This document shows, one piece after another, positions 5,220 to 17,408 of a DNA stretch of 64,000 nucleotides (its first letter is position 1; each line of letters begins with the position of its first letter). A model generated the notes under the pieces. That model had not been told where the DNA came from. It did no database searches and saw nothing but the letters and a program-made list of their open reading frames with translations. The DNA comes from an uncultured Halobacteria archaeon (GTDB lineage Bacteria > Pseudomonadota > Gammaproteobacteria > UBA9214), in NCBI GenBank assembly GCA_963768575.1, contig CAVYIJ010000007.1:45945-109944 (forward strand), in the 5' to 3' direction. The translations under genes were made by a program, and so were the position numbers.

Positions 5220-5617
5220 GGACAGCCATACCCGTCCAACGTGTTCCGCGCCCGGCCCGCGTGCAGGATTTTGCAGCGCCGTTGACCGGTTCTTTCACTC
5301 GAACTCCTTCAAATGACCATGTAACGACGGTCTGTCAATTTATTTAACACACATTTTAAAGCGGCTATAAGCTCATATCCCTCTGTTTTAAATAGATAAT
5401 ATCTGGCAAACGGCTAATTCGCACACTGATTGTCGGCACTCCCCGGGATTGTAATGACTGTATTTTTTACAGCCGCCCCGCTCCTTCTTTGACGCGTACG
5501 CCAGAAAAACAGCTAACTCACTCAATTGTAAACTTTATTTCCGTTGAGCATGGATATTGCATAAATTCACGATCAGGAGTCATACCCAGGGAAAAACAAC
5601 AGCTGGTGGCAATAACA

Positions 5618-6601
5618 ATGGATGATATGACAGCCGAAGCGGCTCGGGAAATACCAACCAGAGTAAACGGACACACCCTCATCGCCGCCAGCACATGCAT
5701 GCAGGGTGTGCTGCGCACCATCAACAAAATATCGAACAACGATGCCCCGGCAATCATTACCGGCGAAAGCGGCACCGGCAAGGAACTGGCCGCGCGCGCC
5801 ATACATGAACAATCCGCGCGCAGGGATGGCGCCTTCATTGCAGTCAATTGCGGGTCCCTGCCCGCCGGCCTGATCCAGTCTGAATTGTTCGGCCACATGA
5901 AGGGCGCGTTTACCGGCGCACACAGTGACCGGATCGGCAGGATCGAAGCGGCGGACAAGGGAACGATCTTTCTTGATGAAATCGGTGATCTGCCCGTCGA
6001 TCTGCAAGTCAACCTGCTGCGTTTCCTGCAGGAAGGCGTCATCGAGCGTGTCGGCAGCGCGGATTCGATACCGGTTGATGTGCGCGTACTGGCAGCCACA
6101 AACATCGACCTGGAGGATGCCATAAAGCAGGGACGGTTTCGGGAAGATCTTTACTACCGCCTGAATGTATTGCCGGTCGAGTTGCCGCCCTTGCGTGAGC
6201 GAGACAAGGATATCGAACAACTCGCCATGCATTTCTTTGCGGAATTCACCCGCAACAAAAAGACCAGGGCGCGTGGGTTCAGCACTTCAGCGCTTTCGGC
6301 AATGAATGCCTATCACTGGCCCGGCAACGTCCGTGAACTGATCAACCGCGTTCGCCGGGGCATTGTGATGTGCGACGGTCCGCAGATTACACAGGAAGAC
6401 CTTGAACTGAACGGCAACATCCACGAGCATCCCGCGAAGACCCTGGCCGAGGCGCGCCGCGAATCGGAGCGCAGCGCGATTAAGGAAGCGCTGATGTGCT
6501 GCCGCAACAACGTCTCCGAGGCAGCACGCCGGTTGAGAGTCTCGAGGGTTACCCTGTACCGCCTGATTGACAAACACGGCCTGAAAAGAAGCCTGGTATA
6601 A
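5618..6601 (+). CDS. Sigma54-dependent enhancer-binding protein (AAA+ and Fis HTH) with no N-terminal sensor domain
   Basis: GESGTGKE, ELFGHMKGAFTGA, FLDEIGDL, FREDLYYRL, WPGNVREL, C-terminal HTH; start could be 5489 (TTG) or 5618 (ATG). Confidence 0.93.
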   Translation: MDDMTAEAAREIPTRVNGHTLIAASTCMQGVLRTINKISNNDAPAIITGESGTGKELAARAIHEQSARRDGAFIAVNCGSLPAGLIQSELFGHMKGAFTGAHSDRIGRIEAADKGTIFLDEIGDLPVDLQVNLLRFLQEGVIERVGSADSIPVDVRVLAATNIDLEDAIKQGRFREDLYYRLNVLPVELPPLRERDKDIEQLAMHFFAEFTRNKKTRARGFSTSALSAMNAYHWPGNVRELINRVRRGIVMCDGPQITQEDLELNGNIHEHPAKTLAEARRESERSAIKEALMCCRNNVSEAARRLRVSRVTLYRLIDKHGLKRSLV

Positions 6602-6732
6602 ACCTCCTTACAGACCGAAGAATCGTTGGCCGATCAGTCATTTTATGCTAGTTTCCCGGGTCTGGCGTTAGCTGCACGACCACTGAATATATACCGCTGC
6701 TTGTATGGCGGCTTGGTGTTAATTGACAAAAG

Positions 6733-7985
6733 GTGAAAACGATGTCGAATCGAGTGATCAATAATTCTGTCCTGTTTGGCCTGTTACTGTGTTCCGGCCA
6801 GGTGCTCAGCGCCGACGGGGGCGTGGATACAAGACTGGATGCGCTTGAGAAAGTCATTACAGAACAGGCAGATACATTAGAGCAGCAGCGCCGGGAGATC
6901 CGCCGGCTGCGCCAGTCCATCGACGGGACGTCTGCTACCAACAGGCAGGCGAGCGGCGAGGAGCTGCCCGTGTCGGGACTTGAAGGGATGCGCGCGGGAG
7001 CGGCCCCCACACCGGTCGGCCAGGCGCCTGAAGAGAAACGCAAGGCCCCTTCCAGCCTGCTGTCATTGCCCGAGGATGTGGGCGGCGTGTTGACCGCGCA
7101 GGGCAAGCTGGTGGTGGAACCGAGCACCTCGTTCTCCACTTCCCAGCTCAACCGCTTCACCTTTCGCGGTATCGAGATCATCGATACCGTCCTGATCGGC
7201 ATCGTGGATGCAGAGGATGTCGACCGTGATATGTACACCGCGACGTTGACCGGCCGCTACGGCCTGACCAACCGCATCGAGCTGGAAGCGAAGCTGCCGT
7301 ACATCTGGCGTGACGACCGGCTGACCGCAACCATCCCGAATGTCGCAGGCACGGACGTCGATGTATACACGAGACCAGGAAGGCAACGGCATCGGCGACA
7401 TCGAACTGGCCGCCCATTACCAGATCAACCAGGGCGCCAATGGCTGGCCCTTCCTGATCGGCAACCTGCGTTACAAGTCGACCACGGGTGAAGGTCCGTT
7501 CGATGTCACGCGCGATGCAGGCGGCATTGAGACGGAACTGGCAACCGGCTCCGGCTTTCACTCCGTCGAAGGCCAGCCTCACCGTGCTGTATCCGACCGC
7601 ACCGGCGGTACTGTTTGGCAACGTCGGTTATCTCTTCACCAAACAGGACAGTATCAACAAGATGATCGGCACCAATTACGTGGGGAATGTCGACCCAGGC
7701 GATGCCGTGCGTACGAGCTTCGGTATGGCGTATTCCGTGAACGAGCGCCTGTCCTTTACCCTCGGTTACAAGCATGATTTTATCTTTCAAACCGATACAG
7801 TTATTGGTAGCAGTCCGGCCAGTGCCGTGACAGTGCATCAGGCCGACCTCGACGTGGGCTCCTTTCTGTTCGGCTATGGTTTCCAGTTGACCCCGAAGCT
7901 GGGCATCAATCTAAACGTGGAAATAGGCGCTACGGACGATGCGCCCGATGCAGCGGTGACGGTGCGTCTCCCCTACAGCATCTAG
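6733..7985 (+). CDS. fapF: FapF-like outer-membrane beta-barrel exporter, interrupted by two apparent +1 frameshifts (~7365, ~7571)
   Basis: Signal peptide, coiled coil LDALEKVITEQADTLEQQRREIRRL, TLTGRYGLTNR, GIGD, ELATGSG, PAVLFGN, C-terminal IGATDDAPD..TVRLPYSI, matching FapF motifs; spread over ORFs 6733-7491, 7340-7777 and 7488-7985. Confidence 0.8.
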
Positions 7986-8014
7986 GCGGTTATCCCGCAC
8001 AGTTAAAACATGGC

Positions 8015-8046
8015 TACGGGAGCGGGCTTTATAGCCCGCTCCTGTA
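8015..8046. terminator. REP-like hairpin, probable terminator downstream of fapF in the gap facing the fapE-like gene
   Basis: tacgggagcgggct-ttat-agcccgctcctgta, 14-bp stem with one G-U pair. Confidence 0.65.
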
Positions 8047-8427
8047 ACACGCCCTGGTGCTGGAATATGTTGTTCAGCTCTGCCTGGAATTCGAATTAAA
8101 CGGCTGGTAGTCGCCGTCAATTTACCCGCAGTGGGGCTTTCGCGGCGCCCCCTGAACGAACCAGGCAGATACTTCGCTGCAGAAACGCCTGCCGCTGCAT
8201 CAACGATCACTCACTATATTGACAGTAAATCAATAGCACCGCTGCGGTTGGCGTGAACGAGCCCCTATATCGCCCGATGCATCTTCCTGGTGGGCCAGCA
8301 GTCACTCGGGCCGTTCTTCCCGGTTCAGTTGCGCATGCAACCACTAGACGTTACGAAAGGTAAACTGTGCATTCTTGCTGCACATCATTACGCGGGATCG
8401 AGGAATGCCTGCGAGAGCAGACCGGTA

Positions 8428-9111
8428 TTAGCGTGGTGTTGACGCAGCGCGGACTGAGCGACCCAGCGTCCCGGCGAACACCGAGTTGCGAGCAGCTTCG
8501 ACATACTCGGTGAAATTCCTTATGGTGATATCCACTTCGAGTTGATTGCTGAGATTCTGGTCGTTGCTGTTTGTGACCAGGGCGCTGACAATACTGTTCT
8601 GCGTCAGCTTTTCAAGCACCGCCGTAAAACCGTCCGAATTACCGATGATAATGCCACCTGTGGCATCCGCCAATCCGGCAAGGTCAACGCCAGGCAGCAG
8701 GTTACCGAGGGTTGTACCCGCCGTACCGCCAACCAGGTGAACCGGGGCGGCAATACCGGGATCGGTGGTAAGTACATTGCTGGTCTGGTCAAATCCACCG
8801 GACGTGTTCAGGGAGTAGACCGCTTCACGGATATAACCGTTTCCGGTAGTGCGCAGGTTCACGCCAAAGCTGACGTCCAGCCCTGCGACCCTGAGGCCAC
8901 CACGCATGTTTTCCATTTCGCCCTCTTCGAGTGCGCCGAACTGCTCCATCGCCGCGCCCGGATCGGCAAACCGGTCACCGTCCAGCCGGGTGGCGGACGC
9001 CGGCAGTGCGCTGCTGCTCGTCACAACCGGGAACAGCGCCGCAAGTAGCAGTAATCCCGTTAAACAAGCCCGGCTTTTGCACACGGTTGATGTGTATCGG
9101 TCGCGCGGCAT
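8428..9111 (-). CDS. FapE-like secreted accessory protein
   Basis: Signal-like N-terminus, LEEGEMENMRGG motif, Asn/Gln-rich C-terminal strand motif (ALVTNSNDQNLSNQLEVDITIRN); last gene after C39 peptidase. Confidence 0.6.
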   Translation of the reverse strand: MPRDRYTSTVCKSRACLTGLLLLAALFPVVTSSSALPASATRLDGDRFADPGAAMEQFGALEEGEMENMRGGLRVAGLDVSFGVNLRTTGNGYIREAVYSLNTSGGFDQTSNVLTTDPGIAAPVHLVGGTAGTTLGNLLPGVDLAGLADATGGIIIGNSDGFTAVLEKLTQNSIVSALVTNSNDQNLSNQLEVDITIRNFTEYVEAARNSVFAGTLGRSVRAASTPR

Positions 9112-9112
9112 A

Positions 9113-9898
9113 TTAACGACCCTGCTCGTTTCTGCCCGGCAGTGACAGGGTGAAGGAGCTAATACTTGATCGATCGACGCCCTCGGCGAGGGGGGAATCA
9201 GGCCAGCTGCGCCAGTCTTCTATCGCATTGAAATTCGCGCGCGCGACCTCGATATTGTTTTTTGCCGCCAGGATAGCGCCGTTCCACATGCCTTCGAAGA
9301 CTTCCCGGCTGACAACCGCCGTTCCGGCCGCCGGGTCGCCGACAAGTACGCGCTCACCCTCGATACCCTTGATGACGACGAAATGCTTGTAGCCCTTGGT
9401 ATTGATAACGGTGATGCCGGGAACCCCGATTTTCATGAACTGGTCCAGGGTCATTCGAAAACCGCCGGCATTCAGGCCGCGGCTGTCGAGGTAATGCTTC
9501 ATGTCGAGCATGGAAAAACCCTGGCTCTTTATCTTTTTCTTGTTACCCACCTTGAACATCGCCTCGAACACCTTTGCTTCGGGTGTCGGCATGTCGTAGT
9601 GGTAAGTCAGCAGGGTGGCCAGTGCCGCGGAACCACAGCTGTAGTCGTACTGTTGTTGTATGACCGTGTCCCAGCGTGCTTCCTTCTTGCTTTCCACCTT
9701 GAGCTTGAAATCACCCCCGCCAAAGCCGGGAATGGCCAGCGCGCCGGCATGCGCAGGAAAACAGCCCAGCTGGATGACTGCGAATATTGCCGGCAACAGA
9801 AATAACGAAGGCCTGGCAAGTGCCAGGCCGAATAGTCCAGTAATGGCAGACTTATTGCTGCCCTGTTTTTGTGTGAAAATGTTTTGCACAGCAAACAT
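9113..9898 (-). CDS. fapD: Stand-alone C39 family peptidase (FapD-like)
   Basis: QQYDYSCGSAALATLL (Cys), YKHFVV (His), VGDPAAG (Asp); hydrophobic signal; no fused ABC transporter. Confidence 0.88.
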   Translation of the reverse strand: MFAVQNIFTQKQGSNKSAITGLFGLALARPSLFLLPAIFAVIQLGCFPAHAGALAIPGFGGGDFKLKVESKKEARWDTVIQQQYDYSCGSAALATLLTYHYDMPTPEAKVFEAMFKVGNKKKIKSQGFSMLDMKHYLDSRGLNAGGFRMTLDQFMKIGVPGITVINTKGYKHFVVIKGIEGERVLVGDPAAGTAVVSREVFEGMWNGAILAAKNNIEVARANFNAIEDWRSWPDSPLAEGVDRSSISSFTLSLPGRNEQGR

Positions 9899-9920
9899 AC
9901 ACTAATTGTGATAACCAGTC

Positions 9921-10298
9921 TTATTGCAAGTTAATAGTGACGCCAATTGCATTGTTGACGGCGTTGTTGTTGCCTGTGACCACGTTGAACAGGCCGACAC
10001 CGCTGAACTCACCCAACGCACCTTCCGCGAAGCTGGCATTGCCGCTCGTCATCGTGCCGACATTGAAACTGCTGCCTGTGATGCTGGCACCCAGGTCCTG
10101 GTTGCTCTGCACGGTGATTGTGGTGCTGCCTTCACGTCCCCGCACGCCACCGAGATCATCACCCTCGATACTGGTGAAGTTGCCGAATGCCTCTGCAGTG
10201 GCCGGTTCCCCGGCGTATAACGGCCCGGCCGTGATCAGTACCATACTGCTGATGGCGGCCAGTACTACCTTCGAGATCGAACTGATTTTGTCCATCAT
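9921..10298 (-). CDS. Small secreted Fap-repeat protein (FapB-like candidate nucleator/minor subunit)
   Basis: Sec signal (PLYA), DDLGGVRG motif, C-terminal GNASFAEGALGEFSGVGLFNVVTGNNNAVNNAIGVTINL resembling the Fap repeat. Confidence 0.7.
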   Translation of the reverse strand: MMDKISSISKVVLAAISSMVLITAGPLYAGEPATAEAFGNFTSIEGDDLGGVRGREGSTTITVQSNQDLGASITGSSFNVGTMTSGNASFAEGALGEFSGVGLFNVVTGNNNAVNNAIGVTINLQ

Positions 10299-10367
10299 AT
10301 CAACCTTCCTGAATTCGAGTTGTTTTCTTCGCTACTTTTATGAATTCGGTTTCAACCCCTGCAAACC

Positions 10368-10395
10368 GGGGCCGGCAGACACTGCCGCCGGCCCC
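10368..10395 (-). promoter_or_regulatory. GC-rich intercistronic stem-loop after the two Gly-rich genes
   Basis: GGGGCCGGCGG-CAGTGT-CTGCCGGCCCC on the minus strand, 20 nt after the stop at 10416, no strong U-tract. Confidence 0.55.
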
Positions 10396-10415
10396 TTCTT
10401 GCTGCAGTGTTGCTG

Positions 10416-11900
10416 TTACAGACCGCCGTTGGTGGACACACCGCCGAATGAACCGATGTTCACTCCGCTGGCTGCACCGATCGACACGCCACCCAGGGTC
10501 CCGTTGTAGAGACCGGCTGATGCGTTGATGTTGGCGATACCACCGAGTACACCACCTGCGGTGCTAACGGTAGCCGTATCGGTGGCCAACTGGCCGCCGG
10601 AAGCAAGACCGCCATTACCACCGGATGCACCGCCACCGGCGTTGCCGCCGAAGCCGCCGAATCCGCCGGCGCCGCCGTCTGCACCATCAGCAGTGTTGGT
10701 GCCATTGTTGGTTTCACCACCAACTCCACCGTCACCACCGATCGCACCATTGGCATTGTTGTTGCCGTTGCTGGTGCCGCCACCATTGCCGCCGGCTCCC
10801 GCATTGGCCATGTTGCCGCCGTTGCTGGTGCCGCCACCGTTGGCGCCGTCACCGGCATCACCACCATTGGCATTGTTGCCGCCGTTGCTGGGTCCGCCGC
10901 CGTCACCGCCGTCACCGCCGTCGGCCGTTACAACGATATCACCACCGTCGCCGCCGCCGTCGCCGCCGCCGTCACCGCCACCCAGGTTGCTGCCGCCGTT
11001 ACCGCCGTTGGCATCACCTGAACCAGCTGCAACAGAGCCGCCGTAACCGCCTGCACCACCTTCACCACCGTCAGCATCGCCGTCGGTCGTGGTGATCATG
11101 CCGCCGTCACCGCCCTCGCTGCCGTAGGCATTACCGTAGCCTTTGGCTTTTCCACCTTCACCGCCATCGCCACCGTGACCGCCGTTGGCATCGCCGTAGG
11201 TGTCGATGTCACCACCATCGCCACCTTCATAGCCGTCACCGCCGTCAGCAAGACCGCCGTCACCGCCGTCACCGCCCGAATAACCGTCACCGCCATAGGC
11301 AGCACCGATATCGATGATGGACTCACCGGTTACAGTCGCATCCAGCGTCTGGTAGGAAATGACTTCCTTGATGGTGTTGAATGCCTCACTGTTGGCCTCG
11401 GCAGTTCCACCTAGACCACCCTCCGAGTGACCACCGAAACCACCATCGCCGCTATCGCTGCTCTGGGTGCTATCTGCAGTGCTGCCCTGGTCAGTGGTGT
11501 TGTCGTTGGTCTGAGTCGACCCGGTGTCTGCCAGATCACCACCATCACCACCTTCATCGCCACCACCGTTGCCCGATACAGCGTCATCGTTGGTCTGGAC
11601 TGAGGTGTTGTTATTGTTGCTGCTGGAGGTGCTATCGCCCGTGGCGTCGCCGCCATCGGCGCTTCCGCCGCTACCGCCCTCACCACCATCGGCGTTGGCT
11701 GTTGCAGTGGAATTGACGGTGTTGGACTGCCCACCGGACATCCCCACGTAACCGTTTAAAGTTTCAGCCGCTTGAGGTGCTTCATAGACCTGGCCACCGT
11801 TAGACAAATTGAACGAATTAACGGGGTTAGCCTGTGCACCTGTCGCTGTGAACATGCACATCGACACGGCTGAACTCACAAGTAGAGTTTTGAATTTCAT
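10416..11900 (-). CDS. Secreted Gly-rich (GGxGGx) putative fibre subunit B with Fap-like C-terminal repeat
   Basis: Sec signal AQA|NPVN; long GGD/GGN/GGA tracts; C-terminus GGIANINASAGLYNGTLGGVSI; RBS AGGAG. Confidence 0.85.
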   Translation of the reverse strand: MKFKTLLVSSAVSMCMFTATGAQANPVNSFNLSNGGQVYEAPQAAETLNGYVGMSGGQSNTVNSTATANADGGEGGSGGSADGGDATGDSTSSSNNNNTSVQTNDDAVSGNGGGDEGGDGGDLADTGSTQTNDNTTDQGSTADSTQSSDSGDGGFGGHSEGGLGGTAEANSEAFNTIKEVISYQTLDATVTGESIIDIGAAYGGDGYSGGDGGDGGLADGGDGYEGGDGGDIDTYGDANGGHGGDGGEGGKAKGYGNAYGSEGGDGGMITTTDGDADGGEGGAGGYGGSVAAGSGDANGGNGGSNLGGGDGGGDGGGDGGDIVVTADGGDGGDGGGPSNGGNNANGGDAGDGANGGGTSNGGNMANAGAGGNGGGTSNGNNNANGAIGGDGGVGGETNNGTNTADGADGGAGGFGGFGGNAGGGASGGNGGLASGGQLATDTATVSTAGGVLGGIANINASAGLYNGTLGGVSIGAASGVNIGSFGGVSTNGGL

Positions 11901-11920
11901 GACCTCTTCTCCTGTTCAGC

Positions 11921-13198
11921 TTAATTGCCGATGTTGACGTTGGAATGAGCGGAAATGGATACGCCACCCAGCGTCGCGTTGTACAGCCCGGAAGAAACGT
12001 TGATGTTGGCAATACCGCCGAACGTACCGGCAGCCGTAGTCACGTCAACCGCACCGGTTGTCAGCACACCACCGGTTGCGTCACCGCCGTTACCACCAGC
12101 ACCGCCGCCACCGCCTGCACCTGCTGTACCACCGTCACCACCGGCACCACCGGCACCCGCATTGGCGATGTTGCCGCCATTGTTGGTCGTACCGCCGCCA
12201 GCACCGTTACCGCCTGCAGCACCATCGGCAGTGTTACCGCCGTTGTCGGTCGTACCACCGGCACCGCCGTCTGCGCCATCAGCAACATTCGTGCCGTTAC
12301 CGCTTGTACCACCGGCACCGCCAGCGCCACCGTTACCGCCATCCGCAGCGTTGGTGCCGTTGTTCGGCGTACCGCCGTTACCGCCATTGCCGCCGTTACC
12401 GGCCACTGAATCACCGCCGTAGCCGCCATTGGCACTACCGTCGCCGGTGGCCGAACCGCCGGAGCCGCCCGAGCTGCCTTCACCGCCATCGGCATCGCCG
12501 CCGCTGACACTGATGGTGCCGCCGCTGCCGCCGTAACCGGCGTCTGCGTCACCCTTGCCCTTGGCATAACCGCCAGCACCGCCTTCACCGCCGTCGCCAC
12601 CGTTGGCATCGCCGTTGGTCGTGATGGTGCCGCCGTCACCGCCGTGGTCTCCGTCACCGCCATCGGCATCACCGCCGTGACCGCCATGGCCACCGGATGC
12701 ACCGTTACCGCCGGTTGCACCACCAATCGTGATGCTGGCACCGGTAATCTGGGCTTCCAGGGTCTGGTAGGAAATGACTTCCACGATATCGTTGAACGAC
12801 TCACTGTTGGCTGTTGCCGTGCCGCCAGCGCCGCCCGTGGAGTTGCCGCCTGTACCACCGGCACCGGCCGTGCTGGTCTGATTACTCGTGGCCGAATCGG
12901 TCTGGGTCGTGCCATTGGTGTTTGCCTGATCGGACTCAGCAGCACTGCTGTTGGCCTGATCACTGCTGTTGCTATTGCCGCTTGTGGCATTGCTAGAACC
13001 GCTTGCCTCACCACCGTCAGCATCTCCACCATCACTCGCGCTGCCGCCATAGGCATTCGCTGTGGCTGTTGAAGTTACGTCGTTGTGTTGACTACCTCCG
13101 AAATTGAACTTGTTAGTCGGGTTGGCAGATACGCCGCAGGCGTAACTGATGCCAATTGCCAGTGCTGACACCGTCAGCAGTTTCGTTTGCTTTTTCAT
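11921..13198 (-). CDS. Secreted Gly-rich (GGxGGx) putative fibre subunit A, paralog of 10416-11900
   Basis: Sec signal VSA|NPTN; shares STATANA, ANSE.FN.I.EVISYQTL.A..TG.SI and GGIANIN.S.GLYN.TLGGVSI blocks with the neighbour; RBS GAGGAG. Confidence 0.85.
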   Translation of the reverse strand: MKKQTKLLTVSALAIGISYACGVSANPTNKFNFGGSQHNDVTSTATANAYGGSASDGGDADGGEASGSSNATSGNSNSSDQANSSAAESDQANTNGTTQTDSATSNQTSTAGAGGTGGNSTGGAGGTATANSESFNDIVEVISYQTLEAQITGASITIGGATGGNGASGGHGGHGGDADGGDGDHGGDGGTITTNGDANGGDGGEGGAGGYAKGKGDADAGYGGSGGTISVSGGDADGGEGSSGGSGGSATGDGSANGGYGGDSVAGNGGNGGNGGTPNNGTNAADGGNGGAGGAGGTSGNGTNVADGADGGAGGTTDNGGNTADGAAGGNGAGGGTTNNGGNIANAGAGGAGGDGGTAGAGGGGGAGGNGGDATGGVLTTGAVDVTTAAGTFGGIANINVSSGLYNATLGGVSISAHSNVNIGN

Positions 13199-13404
13199 TT
13201 TTTCTCCTCAGTCCACTCAAACAAAAACGTTTTTACTCAATGGAATTAAAAACCTCAGTAATGCAGTGACGACGTAGAACCCGACTGTTATGCCAGGTCT
13301 GCACGGAGATATGCGTTATTGAAGCGAAGCCACTAAATAGGGTTTGCAGGGCGTGCTTCGATAACACCATCCATTGTCATGCCTTAATCAGGTACCGTAA
13401 TACC

Positions 13405-13421
13405 AGCAAGGAATGTACCAA
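13405..13421 (-). promoter_or_regulatory. Sigma54 (-24/-12) promoter for the Gly-rich/Fap operon
   Basis: Minus strand TTGGTACATTCCTTGCT: GG-N10-GC spacing with TTGC at -12; about 200 nt upstream of the first gene; sigma54 EBP in the locus. Confidence 0.75.
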
Positions 13422-13635: not shown

Positions 13636-14207
13636 CAGTACATATTTGTGATGTCGATTGCGTACACGAACGACCTGGAACGGGTCAAATGACATTGTTT
13701 CAACATTGTTACACCTGACAATATTGAAACTACGGCGACCACGTTTTCGGGACGAATCCGGCCACCATTACCCTGCACGCCTGACGAACTGGACGGGAAT
13801 GTGCACCAGTGTTGTTACACATTCCCTTTTATTTACTCCGAAAATGAGCGGATCGGGCTTAAATTCCTGCCTGTTAAGAATCCTGACGCAGGCCGCCTGT
13901 GGGCACCCCGATACCTGGTAACGGTTGCGGCAATGAAACGCAGCCCACTACGCGGGCATCCGGTTCGACGCCTGTCAAAGGCAATAATTGCTCGATGGCT
14001 GGAAGTTATAAAAGATGTCGCATAGTATGGTTGAATGATGTACGGCAAGTACAACAACAGCCTGCTAGTGGCGAAAACACCGCCGCACGGCTGAAATCTT
14101 GCCACAGTACTCAAGGCAATGTTGTCAGGCTGCCTGAGGAACCGATTGGGATTATTTTGATGCGAAGTCACTACTGTTGTTTTGTAATGGATCGTGGTGC
14201 GAGTTGG

Positions 14208-17200
14208 ATGCACACGGAAAAACGGGCTGTTTCCTGTACCTCACTGTGGCAAGCCTTTTTCTCATTACTGCAAAATAATAATTTTTTCCGGTCAGTAATC
14301 ATGCCTGCACTGTTGCTGGCAGGCCTGCATGGGTGCGCTACCCAGATGCAGATGGGCGATCAAAATACGCTCGTCACGGCAGCCACCGTTGGCGACAACA
14401 CCAAGGTAGCAAAACTGCTCGGCCAGGGAGTCGATGCAAATATCCAGCTGAATGATGGCACCACGGCATTGTTCATGGCAGCACAGCAAGGACACACAGA
14501 TACCGTCACGTTGCTGCTCAATGCCCAAGCCAACGTCAACGTGCTGGGTTATCGTGGCGCGACACCGTTACTCATTGCCGCTACGACCGGTCACACGGAC
14601 ATCGTCGACCTGCTCGTCAAGCGTGGCGCCACCGTGGATATTCCACGTGAAGATCAAGCCACGCCCCTGTTCATGGCGGCACAGGGCGGTTATGTGAACG
14701 TCGTGAACCTCCTTATAGATGCAGGCGCATATCCGGACAAGCTCGCATACAAGGGAGCAACTGCGTTGTTCATTGCAGCCCAGAACGGACATCACCCGGT
14801 TGTCCAGGCACTTGCAGTCAAAGGCGCAGATGTAAACCTGGGCCTGGAGGACGGCACGACACCGCTCCTCGCAGCAGCGCTGAAAGGACACATGAGTGTC
14901 AGCAGGGTTCTGCTGGAGCATGGCGCCAGGCCGGATACTGCAAATAACCGCGGCATGACACCAATGCTGGCTGCTCGTCAGGAAGGTCACCCGGAATTGT
15001 CGGCATTACTCGGCAGGGCACTGGCATCGCCCGCGCTGGCAGGCACCAAAACCGGCCCGGCACCGGAAATCCAGTCCGCCCCGGTTGTTGAGGAAACGAC
15101 CGGTGCAGTTGCTGCAATGTCATCCGGTCAGCCCGTGCCTGCTGAAAGCGCCGAAACGCGAGTCGTGGCCGAGGTAAGACAAATACCGGGTACAAACACT
15201 GATGCCGCGTCAACGGCAACAACTGCTTCTGCCGCGTCAACGGCAACAACCGCTTCTGCCGTGTCAACGGCAACAACCGCTTCTGCCTCGACAAGCGGCA
15301 CGACACCGCATGAAGCGGCCGTAAAAACGGAAGAATCACCTGCCGGCACAGACCAACCGTCATCCGGCCCAATGCAGGCAGCAACAGTGACGACCGTAAG
15401 CGGCGTGCCTGCTTCAAAGGATAACGACAATACCGCGCCGGTACCGGCACCTGTCACAGAACGGGTAACCGACAGCACTGCGGGCACCGACAAACAAGTT
15501 GCACCGTCCACCGCCGCCTCATGGCGACCTGAAACACCGGCGTCGCAGGTAGCCGGTGACACTGCACCAAAAGACAGCCAGCCCACCGTCAAGCCGTCCG
15601 CTCCGGAACCAACAACTGTCGCGCAGCAGGCGGCCGCCCGGAAAGCCGGTGACGGACCGCAAGCTGCACCGGCAACCGCCGCAACCTGGCAGCCTGAAAC
15701 ACCGGCGTCGCAGGTAGCCGGTGACACTGCACCAAAAGACAGCCAGCCCACCGTCAAGCCGTCCGCTCCGGAACCAACAACTGTCGCGCAGCAGGCGGCC
15801 GCCCGGAAAGCCGGTGACGGACCGCAAGCTGCACCGGCAACCGCCGCAACCTGGCAGCCTGAAACGCCGGCGTCACAGGTAGCGGCCGACGCCGTTCCAG
15901 AAGTCAAACAGGCCGCCGGCAAGCCGGCCGCTCCGGAACCGACCGCGGTCGCGCAGCAGGCGGCCGTCGTGAAAAGCGGTGATGGACCAACAACTGCACC
16001 GGCAACCGTCGCCACGCAACCGGCTGAAAAGCCGGTGCAGCAGGCATCCGGCAAAACCATGCCTGCAACTCCGCAACCGGCACCGAGTAAAATCACCGTA
16101 GCCGGCAAACCGGCTACTGACGAAAAGATTGTGTATATGAAGCCAACGCCGCCCGAGCCCGTGAAAACCGGCGAACGTACCGAACGAGAGGCAGCGACCG
16201 TTGGCGCTGCGCCTGCTGCCGCGAATAAACCAGTGCAAAAAAAGAGAGACGATGGACCCGCTACCATAACAAAACCGGCAATAAAAACTCCGCCGGTAGA
16301 ACTGGCACAGGAAAATTCCGCGAGTATGGAAAATACCATCGCGACAGCTGAACGTGCCGACGAGGACAACACCAGCCCGGTCAGCAGTGCCGTCAGCAAA
16401 AGGTCGACCGACTCACCGGTCGCTTCCAAAACAGAAACAATCGTTGCGAACGTAGACAAGAATAAGGATGAACCGCGCACCGAACCTGCGCAGGCACCGG
16501 ACCTTGCAACTACCGGAACCGCCAAAACCCGCCTGGCTGCAATCGAACTCGAGAGCGACGATCTACAGGTGCGCGCCACAACCAGCAGAAAAATTCTTCG
16601 CGAGGAAACAACTCCCGCAGAGACAGTTAAAAAAGTAATAAAGGGACTGGACGAGGACGAGGAATCCGGACTGGCGGATACCGGTGCCGCGACAATCCAG
16701 AAGCAGTTCACCCGTAAAAATTTCGATGCGAACAAGCATGTGAAGCCGATGCAGGGTAACTTCATCGTCATAAAACCAACGGATATCTATACATCACCTC
16801 AATGGCATGCCTCCAGGTTCAGGAGCCTTGCATCCGGACGTAAAGTAGAGGTCAACGGTTACGTGCAGGGCGGAAAATGGTTTCGTATCAAGTATGCCGG
16901 CGGGGATGGTTACGTCCCGGTACGGCGGCTGAGGGAGATCAGGGACGAAACAACCGGGGAACCGGCCTCCGCGGAGATAAGTGCTGAAACCCTGAAGCGG
17001 AAAATAAACGTTCTTCCGGAAGGTACTTCGGAGCAGCACTACAAATTTGCCATGAATATGTTCCAACTCGGTGAATACACAACGGCTACCCAGGCATTTT
17101 CGGAATTTGTTGAATTACATCCGCATGACTCGAAGGCGCCCAGCGCCATTTACTGGCAGGGCATGTCGTACTACGTCAAGCAAAACTATTCGCAGGCTGC

Positions 17201-17408
17201 TTCCAGTTTCATGCTTCTCTACAAGAGTTTCCCAAGGGACAATAAAGCCGCGGAGGGCCTGCTCAAGTTGAGTAATTCCCTGCACGCACTGGGCAAGCAG
17301 GAAGCCGCCTGTACAGCCCTGGAACAGTTGCGTAATGAATACCCGGGATCCTATCTACGCCTTAAACGTGAAATATATAACAGCGGGGCGGATGCGGGAT
17401 GCTCCTGA
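14208..17408 (+). CDS. Putative lipoprotein: 7 ankyrin repeats, long Ala/Pro/Thr linker, SH3-like domain, CpoB/YbgF-like TPR domain
   Basis: LLLAGLHGC lipobox-like (Cys codon 14334); TPL/TALF.AA..GH..VV.LL repeats; GKWFRIKYAGGDGYV; YWQGMSYY..QNYSQAA...KAAEGLLKL. Start uncertain (13899-14301). Confidence 0.8.
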   Translation: MHTEKRAVSCTSLWQAFFSLLQNNNFFRSVIMPALLLAGLHGCATQMQMGDQNTLVTAATVGDNTKVAKLLGQGVDANIQLNDGTTALFMAAQQGHTDTVTLLLNAQANVNVLGYRGATPLLIAATTGHTDIVDLLVKRGATVDIPREDQATPLFMAAQGGYVNVVNLLIDAGAYPDKLAYKGATALFIAAQNGHHPVVQALAVKGADVNLGLEDGTTPLLAAALKGHMSVSRVLLEHGARPDTANNRGMTPMLAARQEGHPELSALLGRALASPALAGTKTGPAPEIQSAPVVEETTGAVAAMSSGQPVPAESAETRVVAEVRQIPGTNTDAASTATTASAASTATTASAVSTATTASASTSGTTPHEAAVKTEESPAGTDQPSSGPMQAATVTTVSGVPASKDNDNTAPVPAPVTERVTDSTAGTDKQVAPSTAASWRPETPASQVAGDTAPKDSQPTVKPSAPEPTTVAQQAAARKAGDGPQAAPATAATWQPETPASQVAGDTAPKDSQPTVKPSAPEPTTVAQQAAARKAGDGPQAAPATAATWQPETPASQVAADAVPEVKQAAGKPAAPEPTAVAQQAAVVKSGDGPTTAPATVATQPAEKPVQQASGKTMPATPQPAPSKITVAGKPATDEKIVYMKPTPPEPVKTGERTEREAATVGAAPAAANKPVQKKRDDGPATITKPAIKTPPVELAQENSASMENTIATAERADEDNTSPVSSAVSKRSTDSPVASKTETIVANVDKNKDEPRTEPAQAPDLATTGTAKTRLAAIELESDDLQVRATTSRKILREETTPAETVKKVIKGLDEDEESGLADTGAATIQKQFTRKNFDANKHVKPMQGNFIVIKPTDIYTSPQWHASRFRSLASGRKVEVNGYVQGGKWFRIKYAGGDGYVPVRRLREIRDETTGEPASAEISAETLKRKINVLPEGTSEQHYKFAMNMFQLGEYTTATQAFSEFVELHPHDSKAPSAIYWQGMSYYVKQNYSQAASSFMLLYKSFPRDNKAAEGLLKLSNSLHALGKQEAACTALEQLRNEYPGSYLRLKREIYNSGADAGCS
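15207..15287 (+). repeat. 3 x 27-nt coding tandem repeat (ASTATTASA)
   Basis: gcgtcaacggcaacaacYgcttctgcc three times, the third starting gtg. Confidence 0.85.
15528..16022 (+). repeat. 165-nt (55-aa) coding tandem repeat, two identical copies plus one diverged
   Basis: cctgaaac.ccggcgtc starts at 15528, 15693 and 15858. Confidence 0.9.

Follow-up and report, generated by a model that had tools for sequence, protein, structure and literature searches.

Fap and curli are the two paradigms of Gram-negative amyloid fibres, in which the repeats are seen as the core of the fibre and the linkers are treated as variable decoration. The repeat of the curli subunit CsgA follows the pattern S-X5-Q-X-G-X-G-N-X-A-X3-Q, with 19-23 residues per rung. 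In Fap, the minimal repeat is defined by the core motif G-X4-N-X3-G-X6-N and detached fapF genes occur in some genera (PMC3792158), while linker L2 of FapC, which spans 35-259 residues, lies outside the amyloid core and alters the mechanics of the fibre (PMC12392863, PMC3792158). Here, we describe a distant Fap-type locus in a stretch of 64,000 nucleotides (the window; contig CAVYIJ010000007.1, positions 45,945 to 109,944 of the forward strand) from an uncultured organism that is deposited as a Halobacteria archaeon and placed by GTDB within the gammaproteobacterial lineage UBA9214. The locus encodes two secreted glycine-rich large subunits, A and B, and a small subunit, C. In A and B, a core element that is continuous in C is split by a long glycine-rich repeat array, and this array is conserved and under purifying selection.

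A and B share a common layout, consisting of a Sec signal peptide (residues 1-25 in A, 1-24 in B), a polar stretch rich in Ser, Asn, Thr and Gln that extends to residue 131 in A, a short conserved segment (SESFN..EVISYQTL.A..TG.SI), a glycine tract of approximately 220-240 residues with 44-46% Gly, and a conserved C-terminal segment (GGIANINVSSGLYN.TLGGVSI...NIG). The original prediction, which was made from the letters of the window alone, had placed the tracts at 10416-12721, where 12721 belongs to the first codon of the A insert (residue 160) and 10416 to the stop codon of B, and had divided them into RTX-like nonamers in the first half and longer units in the second. All of the motifs it quoted are present in the translated minus-strand open reading frames of A and B. 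The nonamers are found at residues 186 (GGDGGTITT) and 223 (GGSGGTISV) of A and at residues 226 (GGDGGDIDT), 263 (GGDGGMITT) and 316 (GGDGGDIVV) of B, and each of them is followed by (G)DA[ND]GG. A motif search for the second-half unit, predicted as GG-T-x-N-G and found as GG[ST/G]-x-x-N-G-x-N-x-A-[DN], retrieved four copies in each protein, with the N-x-A anchor at residues 283, 304, 322 and 343 of A and at residues 342, 363, 381 and 402 of B. The inserts are likewise devoid of Cys, Trp and Arg and acidic, as had been predicted, with net charges of -20 in A and -31 in B.

The proposed division into two different grammars did not hold. Each of the two proteins contains 14 copies of a punctuation of the type A-[D/N and similar]-GG, compared with 3.6-4.1 ± 1.7 in shuffled sequences, and the spacing of this punctuation has a mode of 20-21 residues. 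Cutting at this punctuation yields units of mostly 18-21 residues in both halves of the insert, such as GGDGDHGGDGGTITTNGDAN, GGDGGEGGAGGYAKGKGDAD and GGNGGAGGAGGTSGNGTNVAD. Because the nonamer with its GDAN in the first half and GGT.NG.N.A[DN] in the second half share the punctuation and the unit length, they are variants of a single unit. Each tract is thus an array of approximately 10-11 units of about 20 residues, and each unit comprises a (GGx)3-4 run, a short polar element and G-x-A-[D/N]. At the nucleotide level, Tandem Repeats Finder (TRF) detected a 63-nt period in A (2.6 copies, 12126-12288) and a 54-nt period in B (3.3 copies, 10726-10911), both in the second halves of the inserts, in addition to numerous 9-nt arrays. 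Residue autocorrelation in the window proteins and their relatives gave peaks at lags 3, 6, 18, 21 and 39/42, with z-scores of up to 5-6.

Profile comparison with the small-subunit family by hhalign aligned residues 139-157 of A with residues 61-79 of C (probability 85%, E 5.9e-6), a match that was seen in a further comparison too, and residues 376-415 of A with residues 80-120 of C (probability 80%, E 1.5e-5). The two flanks are therefore exactly contiguous in C, with the junction at residues 79/80, and the view of the tracts as true inserts in a conserved core was confirmed. As judged by these profile alignments, the glycine tract is a precise insertion at one exact point of the large-subunit core. 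In three remote relatives, the large subunit contains the same core in unsplit form (L014, 3616-4944; L015, 2-1141; L013, 2-295), preceded by long N-terminal Ser/Thr/Asn repeats that contain NQGNTAVANSGN; examples are STDNSNQGNTAVANSGNTNATKTT in L014 and TKTSSVADSGNTS in L015. Since these remote subunits are expanded N-terminally and with Ser, Thr and Asn, low-complexity expansion uses a different site and a different composition in different lineages.

Composition-corrected BLASTP aligns only the C-termini of A and B; in a global alignment, both proteins are collinear over their whole length, and the inserts alone reach a local alignment score of 663 versus 382 ± 13.5 in shuffles. Because the collinearity extends through the entire insert, the repeat pattern was inherited once and not built twice. 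The orthologues of A and B in the syntenic locus L002 are P0102 (66% identity to A) and P0103, respectively. The individual repeats are positionally orthologous across species: A and P0102, for example, share a first unit with Pro and a second unit with GTNVAD. No sign of concerted homogenisation of the repeats was seen in the cross-species comparison.

Selection on the insert was quantified by the ratio of non-synonymous to synonymous substitution rates (dN/dS), using Nei-Gojobori estimates with Jukes-Cantor correction. For the pair of 407-aa proteins from L004 and L005 (dS ~0.40), dN/dS within the insert is 0.058 for all codons, 0.034 for Gly codons and 0.075 for non-Gly codons, and there is no indel in 238 residues. 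The second protein pair of L004 and L005 yields 0.115 and a single-residue indel, and the comparison of A with its L002 orthologue approximately 0.18, at a saturated dS. The glycine-repeat module is thus real, conserved and under purifying selection, and the low dN/dS values together with the positional orthology of the repeats argue that it is not a freely drifting spacer.

The inserts contain 37-49% Gly and very few hydrophobic residues, and their acidic character with almost no Lys or Arg extends to all 17 relatives examined (net charge -1 to -31; -14 to -31 and at most 1.3% Lys+Arg in the twelve full-length inserts). The 21-aa second-half unit is kept in L002, L004, L005 and G224, replaced by GGAATATGG in L006 and degenerate in L003, L010, L011 and G052. 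The nonamers with Ile or Val are restricted to the window and L002, and L004 and L005 have GGxGG[WYM]A[HK]G.GDA.GG in their place. A sequence logo of 44 second-half units from the whole family reads xGG[ST]TxNGxNxA[ND][GA][GA]xGGxGGx; the units were chosen on their N, N and A residues, so that the invariance of these three in the logo arises by construction, but they are also invariant among the four closest sequences, independently of this selection. Two polymorphisms were noted in metagenome runs: an in-frame CCG insertion behind position 10905, in the repeat region of B, which accounts for about half of the depth in run X1, and the replacement of a 61-nt stretch by 70 nt (+3 codons) at 11524-11586, in the N-terminal polar region of B, in run X2.

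The genes around A and B identify the locus type (Table 1). Like Pseudomonas Fap, it encodes a periplasmic C39 peptidase of the stand-alone kind, a FapF-type channel whose N-terminus carries a coiled coil and several Sec-exported subunits just upstream of the peptidase gene; its small subunit carries a minimal Fap repeat, and the size of its large subunits varies in non-core low-complexity segments, similar to the 35-259 residues of FapC L2 (PMC12392863, PMC3792158). The Fap repeat motif has one match in C, where 0.0115 are expected by chance. The peptidase matches the NCBIfam FapD model with E 1.1e-40 (139 bits; equivalog cut-off 330), and no ABC domain was found in the 261-aa protein by Pfam or NCBIfam. 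The two end pieces of the FapF-like gene match the FapF model with E 8.6e-13 and 1.6e-18, and its intact homologue in L002 with E 1.1e-49 over profile positions 9-420 of 420 (below the cut-off of 700). The combination of the Fap repeat in C with a FapD-like peptidase and a FapF-like channel defines a distant Fap-type locus. A functional link between small subunit and peptidase is further suggested by P0077 (375 aa), in which the small subunit of one relative is fused to a C39 peptidase. For the two machinery proteins, which this comparison covers, the Fil system of Acinetobacter comes second among the NCBIfam models (FilB E 1.1e-33, also below its cut-off; FilC E 3.7e-17); these scores are weaker than those for Fap, and Fil itself is poorly characterised.

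Table 1. Features of the glycine-rich fibre locus (window coordinates)
Feature	Position	Strand	Description	Basis
Gene A	11921..13198	-	425-aa secreted Gly-rich large subunit	Open reading frame and translation
A core, N-terminal half	12722..12805	-	Residues 132-159, SESFNDIVEVISYQTLEAQITGASITIG	hhalign against small-subunit family
A insert, first half	12395..12721	-	Residues 160-268; ~20-aa units, e.g. GGDGDHGGDGGTITTNGDAN, GGDGGEGGAGGYAKGKGDAD, AGYGGSGGTISVSGGDAD	Motif search, segmentation
A insert, second half	12161..12394	-	Residues 269-346; four 18-21-aa units	TRF, unit logo
A insert, closing (GGx)n run	12068..12160	-	Residues 347-377, AGAGGAGGDGGTAGAGGGGGAGGNGGDAT...	Triplet-run scan
A core, C-terminal half	11924..12067	-	Residues 378-425, ...GTFGGIANINVSSGLYNATLGGVSISAHSNVNIGN	hhalign
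Gene B	10416..11900	-	494-aa paralogue of A	Open reading frame and translation, alignment
B core, N-terminal half	11307-11390	-	Residues 171-198	
B insert, first half	10920..11306	-	Residues 199-327; holds GGDGGDIDT, GGDGGMITT, GGDGGDIVV	
B insert, second half	10686..10919	-	Residues 328-405; four N-G-x-N-x-A-[ND] units	TRF, logo
B closing GGx run and core C-terminal half	10419..10685	-	Residues 406-434; residues 435-494 including a 10-aa tail	
Small subunit C	9921..10298	-	125 aa, secreted; unsplit core and one minimal Fap repeat (GVGLFNVVTGNNNAVNN at residue 100)	
C39 peptidase, FapD/FilB-like	9113..9898	-	261 aa, stand-alone, periplasmic	Pfam PF03412 E 8.9e-22
Secreted protein in FapE position	8428..9111	-	227 aa; syntenic gene in L002, L003, L004, L008, L012, L024	
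FapF-like outer-membrane channel gene	6733..7985	+	Three reading frames: 6733-7491, 7340-7777, 7488-7985	
Sigma-54 enhancer-binding protein	5489..6601	+	No sensor domain	Pfam Sigma54_activat E 5e-69
Predicted sigma-54 -24/-12 element	13405..13421	-	TGGTAC-N5-TTGCT, GG-N10-GC spacing; upstream of A	Read from sequence

The locus differs from Fap in several respects. All matches remain below the NCBIfam equivalog cut-offs. The large subunits consist of one split core, while those of Fap consist of three repeats joined by linkers, and the inserted segment is a selected array of Gly-rich repeats. In addition, the locus appears to be under sigma-54 control, as predicted from the -24/-12 element upstream of A. 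Curli resembles A and B in the unit length of about 20 residues, in a conserved G-x-N-x-A at the turn and in being built of secreted subunits that are exported unfolded, which A and B would probably share. In contrast to CsgA, the inserts do not match the Pfam family Curlin_rpt even at E<=10, they have neither the Gln/Ser ladder positions nor the alternating hydrophobic residues, and no CsgG, CsgE or CsgF genes were found among the neighbours of A and B.

On this basis, we tentatively favour the reading that the glycine tract is an ordered, acidic repeat module that is displayed on a distant Fap-like fibre and acts as a functional counterpart of the variable FapC linkers, to which we assign a little less than an even chance. 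A and B would be exported by Sec and would cross the outer membrane unfolded via the FapF-like channel, with participation of the FapD-like C39 peptidase. They would then polymerise via both conserved halves of the core, with C, the 125-aa subunit with one repeat, as the probable template, and the glycine module would subsequently fold to give an ordered and acidic stack, rich in Asn and Gly, that runs along the fibre. Within this stack, β-hairpins or β-arcs at the conserved Asn-Gly turns, linked by extended GGx segments, are the favoured fold. When the second-half units of close relatives are aligned, conservation is highest at N-G, N and A, which hints at β structure; the N-x-G-N-x-A element recurs in the remote Ser/Thr/Asn repeats as NQGNTA and resembles the TGNNNA that C has in its Fap repeat, and the conserved core is composed of short strands punctuated by GG. 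These likenesses argue for the hairpin or arc fold. The module might tune the surface chemistry and the mechanics of the fibre in a similar way as FapC linkers do. For C, AlphaFold2 (AF2) returned a model with a predicted local distance difference test score (pLDDT) of 70.7 in which a β-hairpin (100-106/115-121) is the only element, as expected of a subunit that folds on assembly; a Foldseek search with this model was empty.

Several observations weigh against an ordered module on a Fap-like fibre. The AF2 model of A, which was computed from a shallow alignment of 17 sequences, has a pLDDT of 44.6 and a predicted template modelling score of 0.29, stays below 60 throughout and predicts the core halves poorly as well. 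In favour of β structure, its best region, residues 215-320, which reaches 50-57, shows, at low confidence, short β bridges on both sides of each N-G. Foldseek searches with this model gave nothing below E=5; the weak top matches are β-solenoids, and the hydrophobic residues of the insert are too few for a normal β-solenoid core. The distant relatives L003, L006, L010, L011 and G052 carry differently patterned Gly-rich inserts, which also fits a region that is selected for composition and not for fold. The last Asn of the minimal Fap repeat is missing in A and B, and the motif is absent from their cores; its single match in A sits in the Gly tract and is at chance level (0.39 expected). The NCBIfam FapB and FapC models do not match the locus subunits, FapA and FapE models have no match either, and the operon contains no FapA-like gene, while no model matches the protein that occupies the FapE position. 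The Fap assignment consequently rests on the machinery and the small subunit. Finally, the FapF-like gene is split over three frames, and the system might therefore be inactive in this organism. However, the window stems from the assembly of a sediment metagenome, and in contigs from other such metagenomes 4 bases are missing at 7332-7367 and 1 base at 7573 of the window; the frameshifts thus probably reflect assembly errors or strain-specific indels and not a dead gene.

Low AF2 scores over the entire chain, the abundance of Gly and the scarcity of hydrophobic residues would also be expected if the insert were a disordered acidic "fuzzy coat" or elastic spacer, similar to the GGX segments of silk, that is kept for composition, secretion competence and hydration. 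In line with this, the fine pattern is not kept in distant relatives, the remote ones instead have Ser/Thr/Asn repeats in another part of the protein, the linkers of FapC are for the most part disordered (PMC12392863), and in-frame indels segregate within the population. What disorder explains less readily is the strength of the constraint: at a dS of ~0.4, dN/dS is 0.06-0.12 with 0-1 single-residue indels, the non-Gly positions are constrained too, and Asn, Gly and Ala are conserved position by position in repeats that are positionally orthologous across genera. We consider a disordered insert possible but rather unlikely.

An ordered alternative to β-arcs is a sandwich of polyglycine-II (PGII; polyproline-II-type, PPII) helices, as in the springtail antifreeze protein, ALK and the PGRS domains of mycobacterial PE_PGRS proteins, which would place a flat, hydrogen-bonded sheet on the fibre. 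The original prediction had stressed this periodicity, and the GGx triplet lattice itself was recovered, with dominant periods that are all multiples of 3. GG.GG strings are enriched (20 in A and 23 in B versus 9.8 ± 3.1 and 10.2 ± 3.2 in insert shuffles), units typically hold four GGx triplets, within the reported PGRS helix length of 3-5 (PMC10216338), and the unit lengths of 18 and 21 differ by exactly one triplet. Moreover, strings such as GGHGGHGG and GGNGGNGG are reminiscent of helix III in the snow-flea protein with its residues H32, N35 and N38 (PMC11364801). Runs of at least four Gly-x-x triplets, however, cover only 54% of the A insert (z=3.0) and 31% of the B insert (z=0.8, i.e. not above shuffles), with a maximum of 9 triplets in A in the closing run (residues 347-377). 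The intervening elements of 8-9 residues, such as TITTNGDAN, YAKGKGDAD and TSGNGTNVAD, lack Gly periodicity and are too long for tight turns, and a profile of 17 family members found no match among PDB sequences at E<=10. AF2 is reported to reproduce the PGII bundles of the large snow-flea isoform and of PGRS (PMC11364801, PMC10216338). Its failure to provide a confident model here is mild evidence against a canonical PGII sandwich, although the alignment was shallow, and overall we regard such a fold as unlikely.

PGRS domains and the inserts both contain arrays of GGx, GGA and GGN triplets, with 3-5 triplets per run, and have an acidic, surface-exposed and indel-prone character in common, as well as the long-standing ambiguity between an RTX-like β-roll (PMC5054227) and a PGII sandwich (PMC10216338). 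In contrast to PE_PGRS proteins, A and B have no PE domain and no type VII secretion, they lack the regular hydrophobic "sail foot" residues, their GGx runs alternate with conserved N-G-x-N-x-A elements, and there is neither detectable homology nor an AF2 model of the PGII type.

That the Asp-rich nonamers instead form an RTX-type β-roll whose folding or function depends on calcium, as suggested by their resemblance to GGxGxDxLx and likewise proposed for PGRS domains (PMC5054227), is very improbable: net charges of this size, strings that start with GG and one strict GGxGxDxUx match each in A (GGYGGDSVA) and B (GGDGGDIVV) would fit, but the D/N-relaxed pattern GGxGx[DN]xUx occurs only 0-2 times in each of 12 relatives (shuffle mean 0.2-0.5, maximum 2-4) and never 9 residues apart or in tandem, most of the quoted nonamers have the hydrophobic residue displaced (Ile at position 7) or lack it, and Pfam gives no family at E<=0.1 for whole A and B and none, HemolysinCabind (PF00353) included, at E<=10 for the inserts. 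Neither is the Asp conserved, as the closest orthologues (L002) have Asn at numerous sites where the window proteins have Asp and the nonamers as such are exchanged in L004 and L005, nor does the export route correspond to type I secretion, given the Sec signal peptides, the C39 protein without an ABC domain, the FapF-like channel and the lack of a type I secretion system nearby. As far as its sequence allows this to be judged, the insert is not a calcium-binding RTX domain, and the resemblance is superficial. A collagen-like triple helix (Gly-x-x runs of at most 9 triplets, no Pro) and EF-hand-like DxDxDG loops (no matching strings on reading the sequence) were considered and rejected.

Neither Pfam and NCBIfam nor the PDB contains the family. 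Searches of A, B, C, the 227-aa protein with its homologues and the remote large subunits against Pfam and NCBIfam identified no family, and the literature searched on glycine-rich or polyglycine-II FapC, on Fap-like, FapF-like and FapD-like systems and on Fil yielded no description of it. In an exact-sequence cluster look-up, the Gly-rich proteins were not in the collection, and only the small subunit was present, as a "hypothetical protein". With whole A as query, 8000 scored candidates from a collection of 5.8 billion proteins were all compositional look-alikes, none with E<=0.001, and the C-terminal 50 residues of A retrieved a single match of 256 aa from the same collection; a search of genome contigs for related loci via the C39 peptidase found nothing. 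The small subunit is a more productive query, with homologues in 101 representative clusters among 1.84 billion proteins. In the closer relatives with readable upstream DNA (L002-L006, L008, L010-L012, G224 and G052), one to three Gly-rich large-subunit genes are located directly upstream of the small-subunit gene, and the contigs of relatives frequently end inside these Gly-rich genes.

Fibre genes of this family are found in approximately 2% of the sampled genomes of the class, mostly from uncultured sediment bacteria. A homologue of the small subunit is present in 8 of 401 genomes of the class and in none of 36 genomes from the same genus. Close versions of the locus are present in another family of the class, in G224 (L024), G383 and G052 (L025); G224 encodes a small subunit with E 1.6e-37 and three tandem Gly-rich paralogues. 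This distribution suggests that the locus (5489-13421) was probably acquired horizontally.

Further observations concern the neighbouring genes. The homologues of the sigma-54 activator in L002 (11300-12685), L012 (4084-5433) and one JGI contig carry an N-terminal VpsR-type domain, which is missing from the homologue in L003 (10234-11199, 321 aa) as it is from the window protein. The FapF-like protein (8703-10217) of L003, a metagenome-assembled genome of the Pseudomonadales, contains an additional N-terminal SPOR/FtsN-like segment (NCBIfam ftsN E 1.8e-5, RlpA E ~1e-3), which hints at anchoring of the channel to peptidoglycan. Divergent from the fibre operon, a large ankyrin-repeat protein (13899-17408, plus strand) with a long Ala/Pro/Thr linker, an SH3-like domain and a CpoB/YbgF-like TPR end is encoded, and an 876-aa ankyrin protein lies on the same side of the syntenic locus in L002 (964-3594); the pairing with the fibre operon may thus be conserved.

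In the large subunits of this locus, a Gly array that is under selection and conserved position by position makes up over half of the mature protein and lies inside a core element. It is conceivable, although we consider it doubtful, that the locus represents a new kind of bacterial fibre, in which an ordered module, built almost wholly of Gly, Asn, Asp and Ala, interrupts a Fap-like cross-β core and forms either a PGII sandwich, the first on a functional amyloid of Gram-negative bacteria, or a new β-arc stack that is poor in hydrophobic residues and held by Asn ladders and backbone hydrogen bonds. With either fold, the fibre would be a silk-like composite of amyloid crystallites and GGX segments with a highly acidic, cation-binding surface. 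If the array is disordered, it would constitute an unusually strongly constrained fuzzy coat; if it is ordered, it would represent an unrecognised way of building a protein surface without a hydrophobic core and a natural template for engineerable fibre coats.

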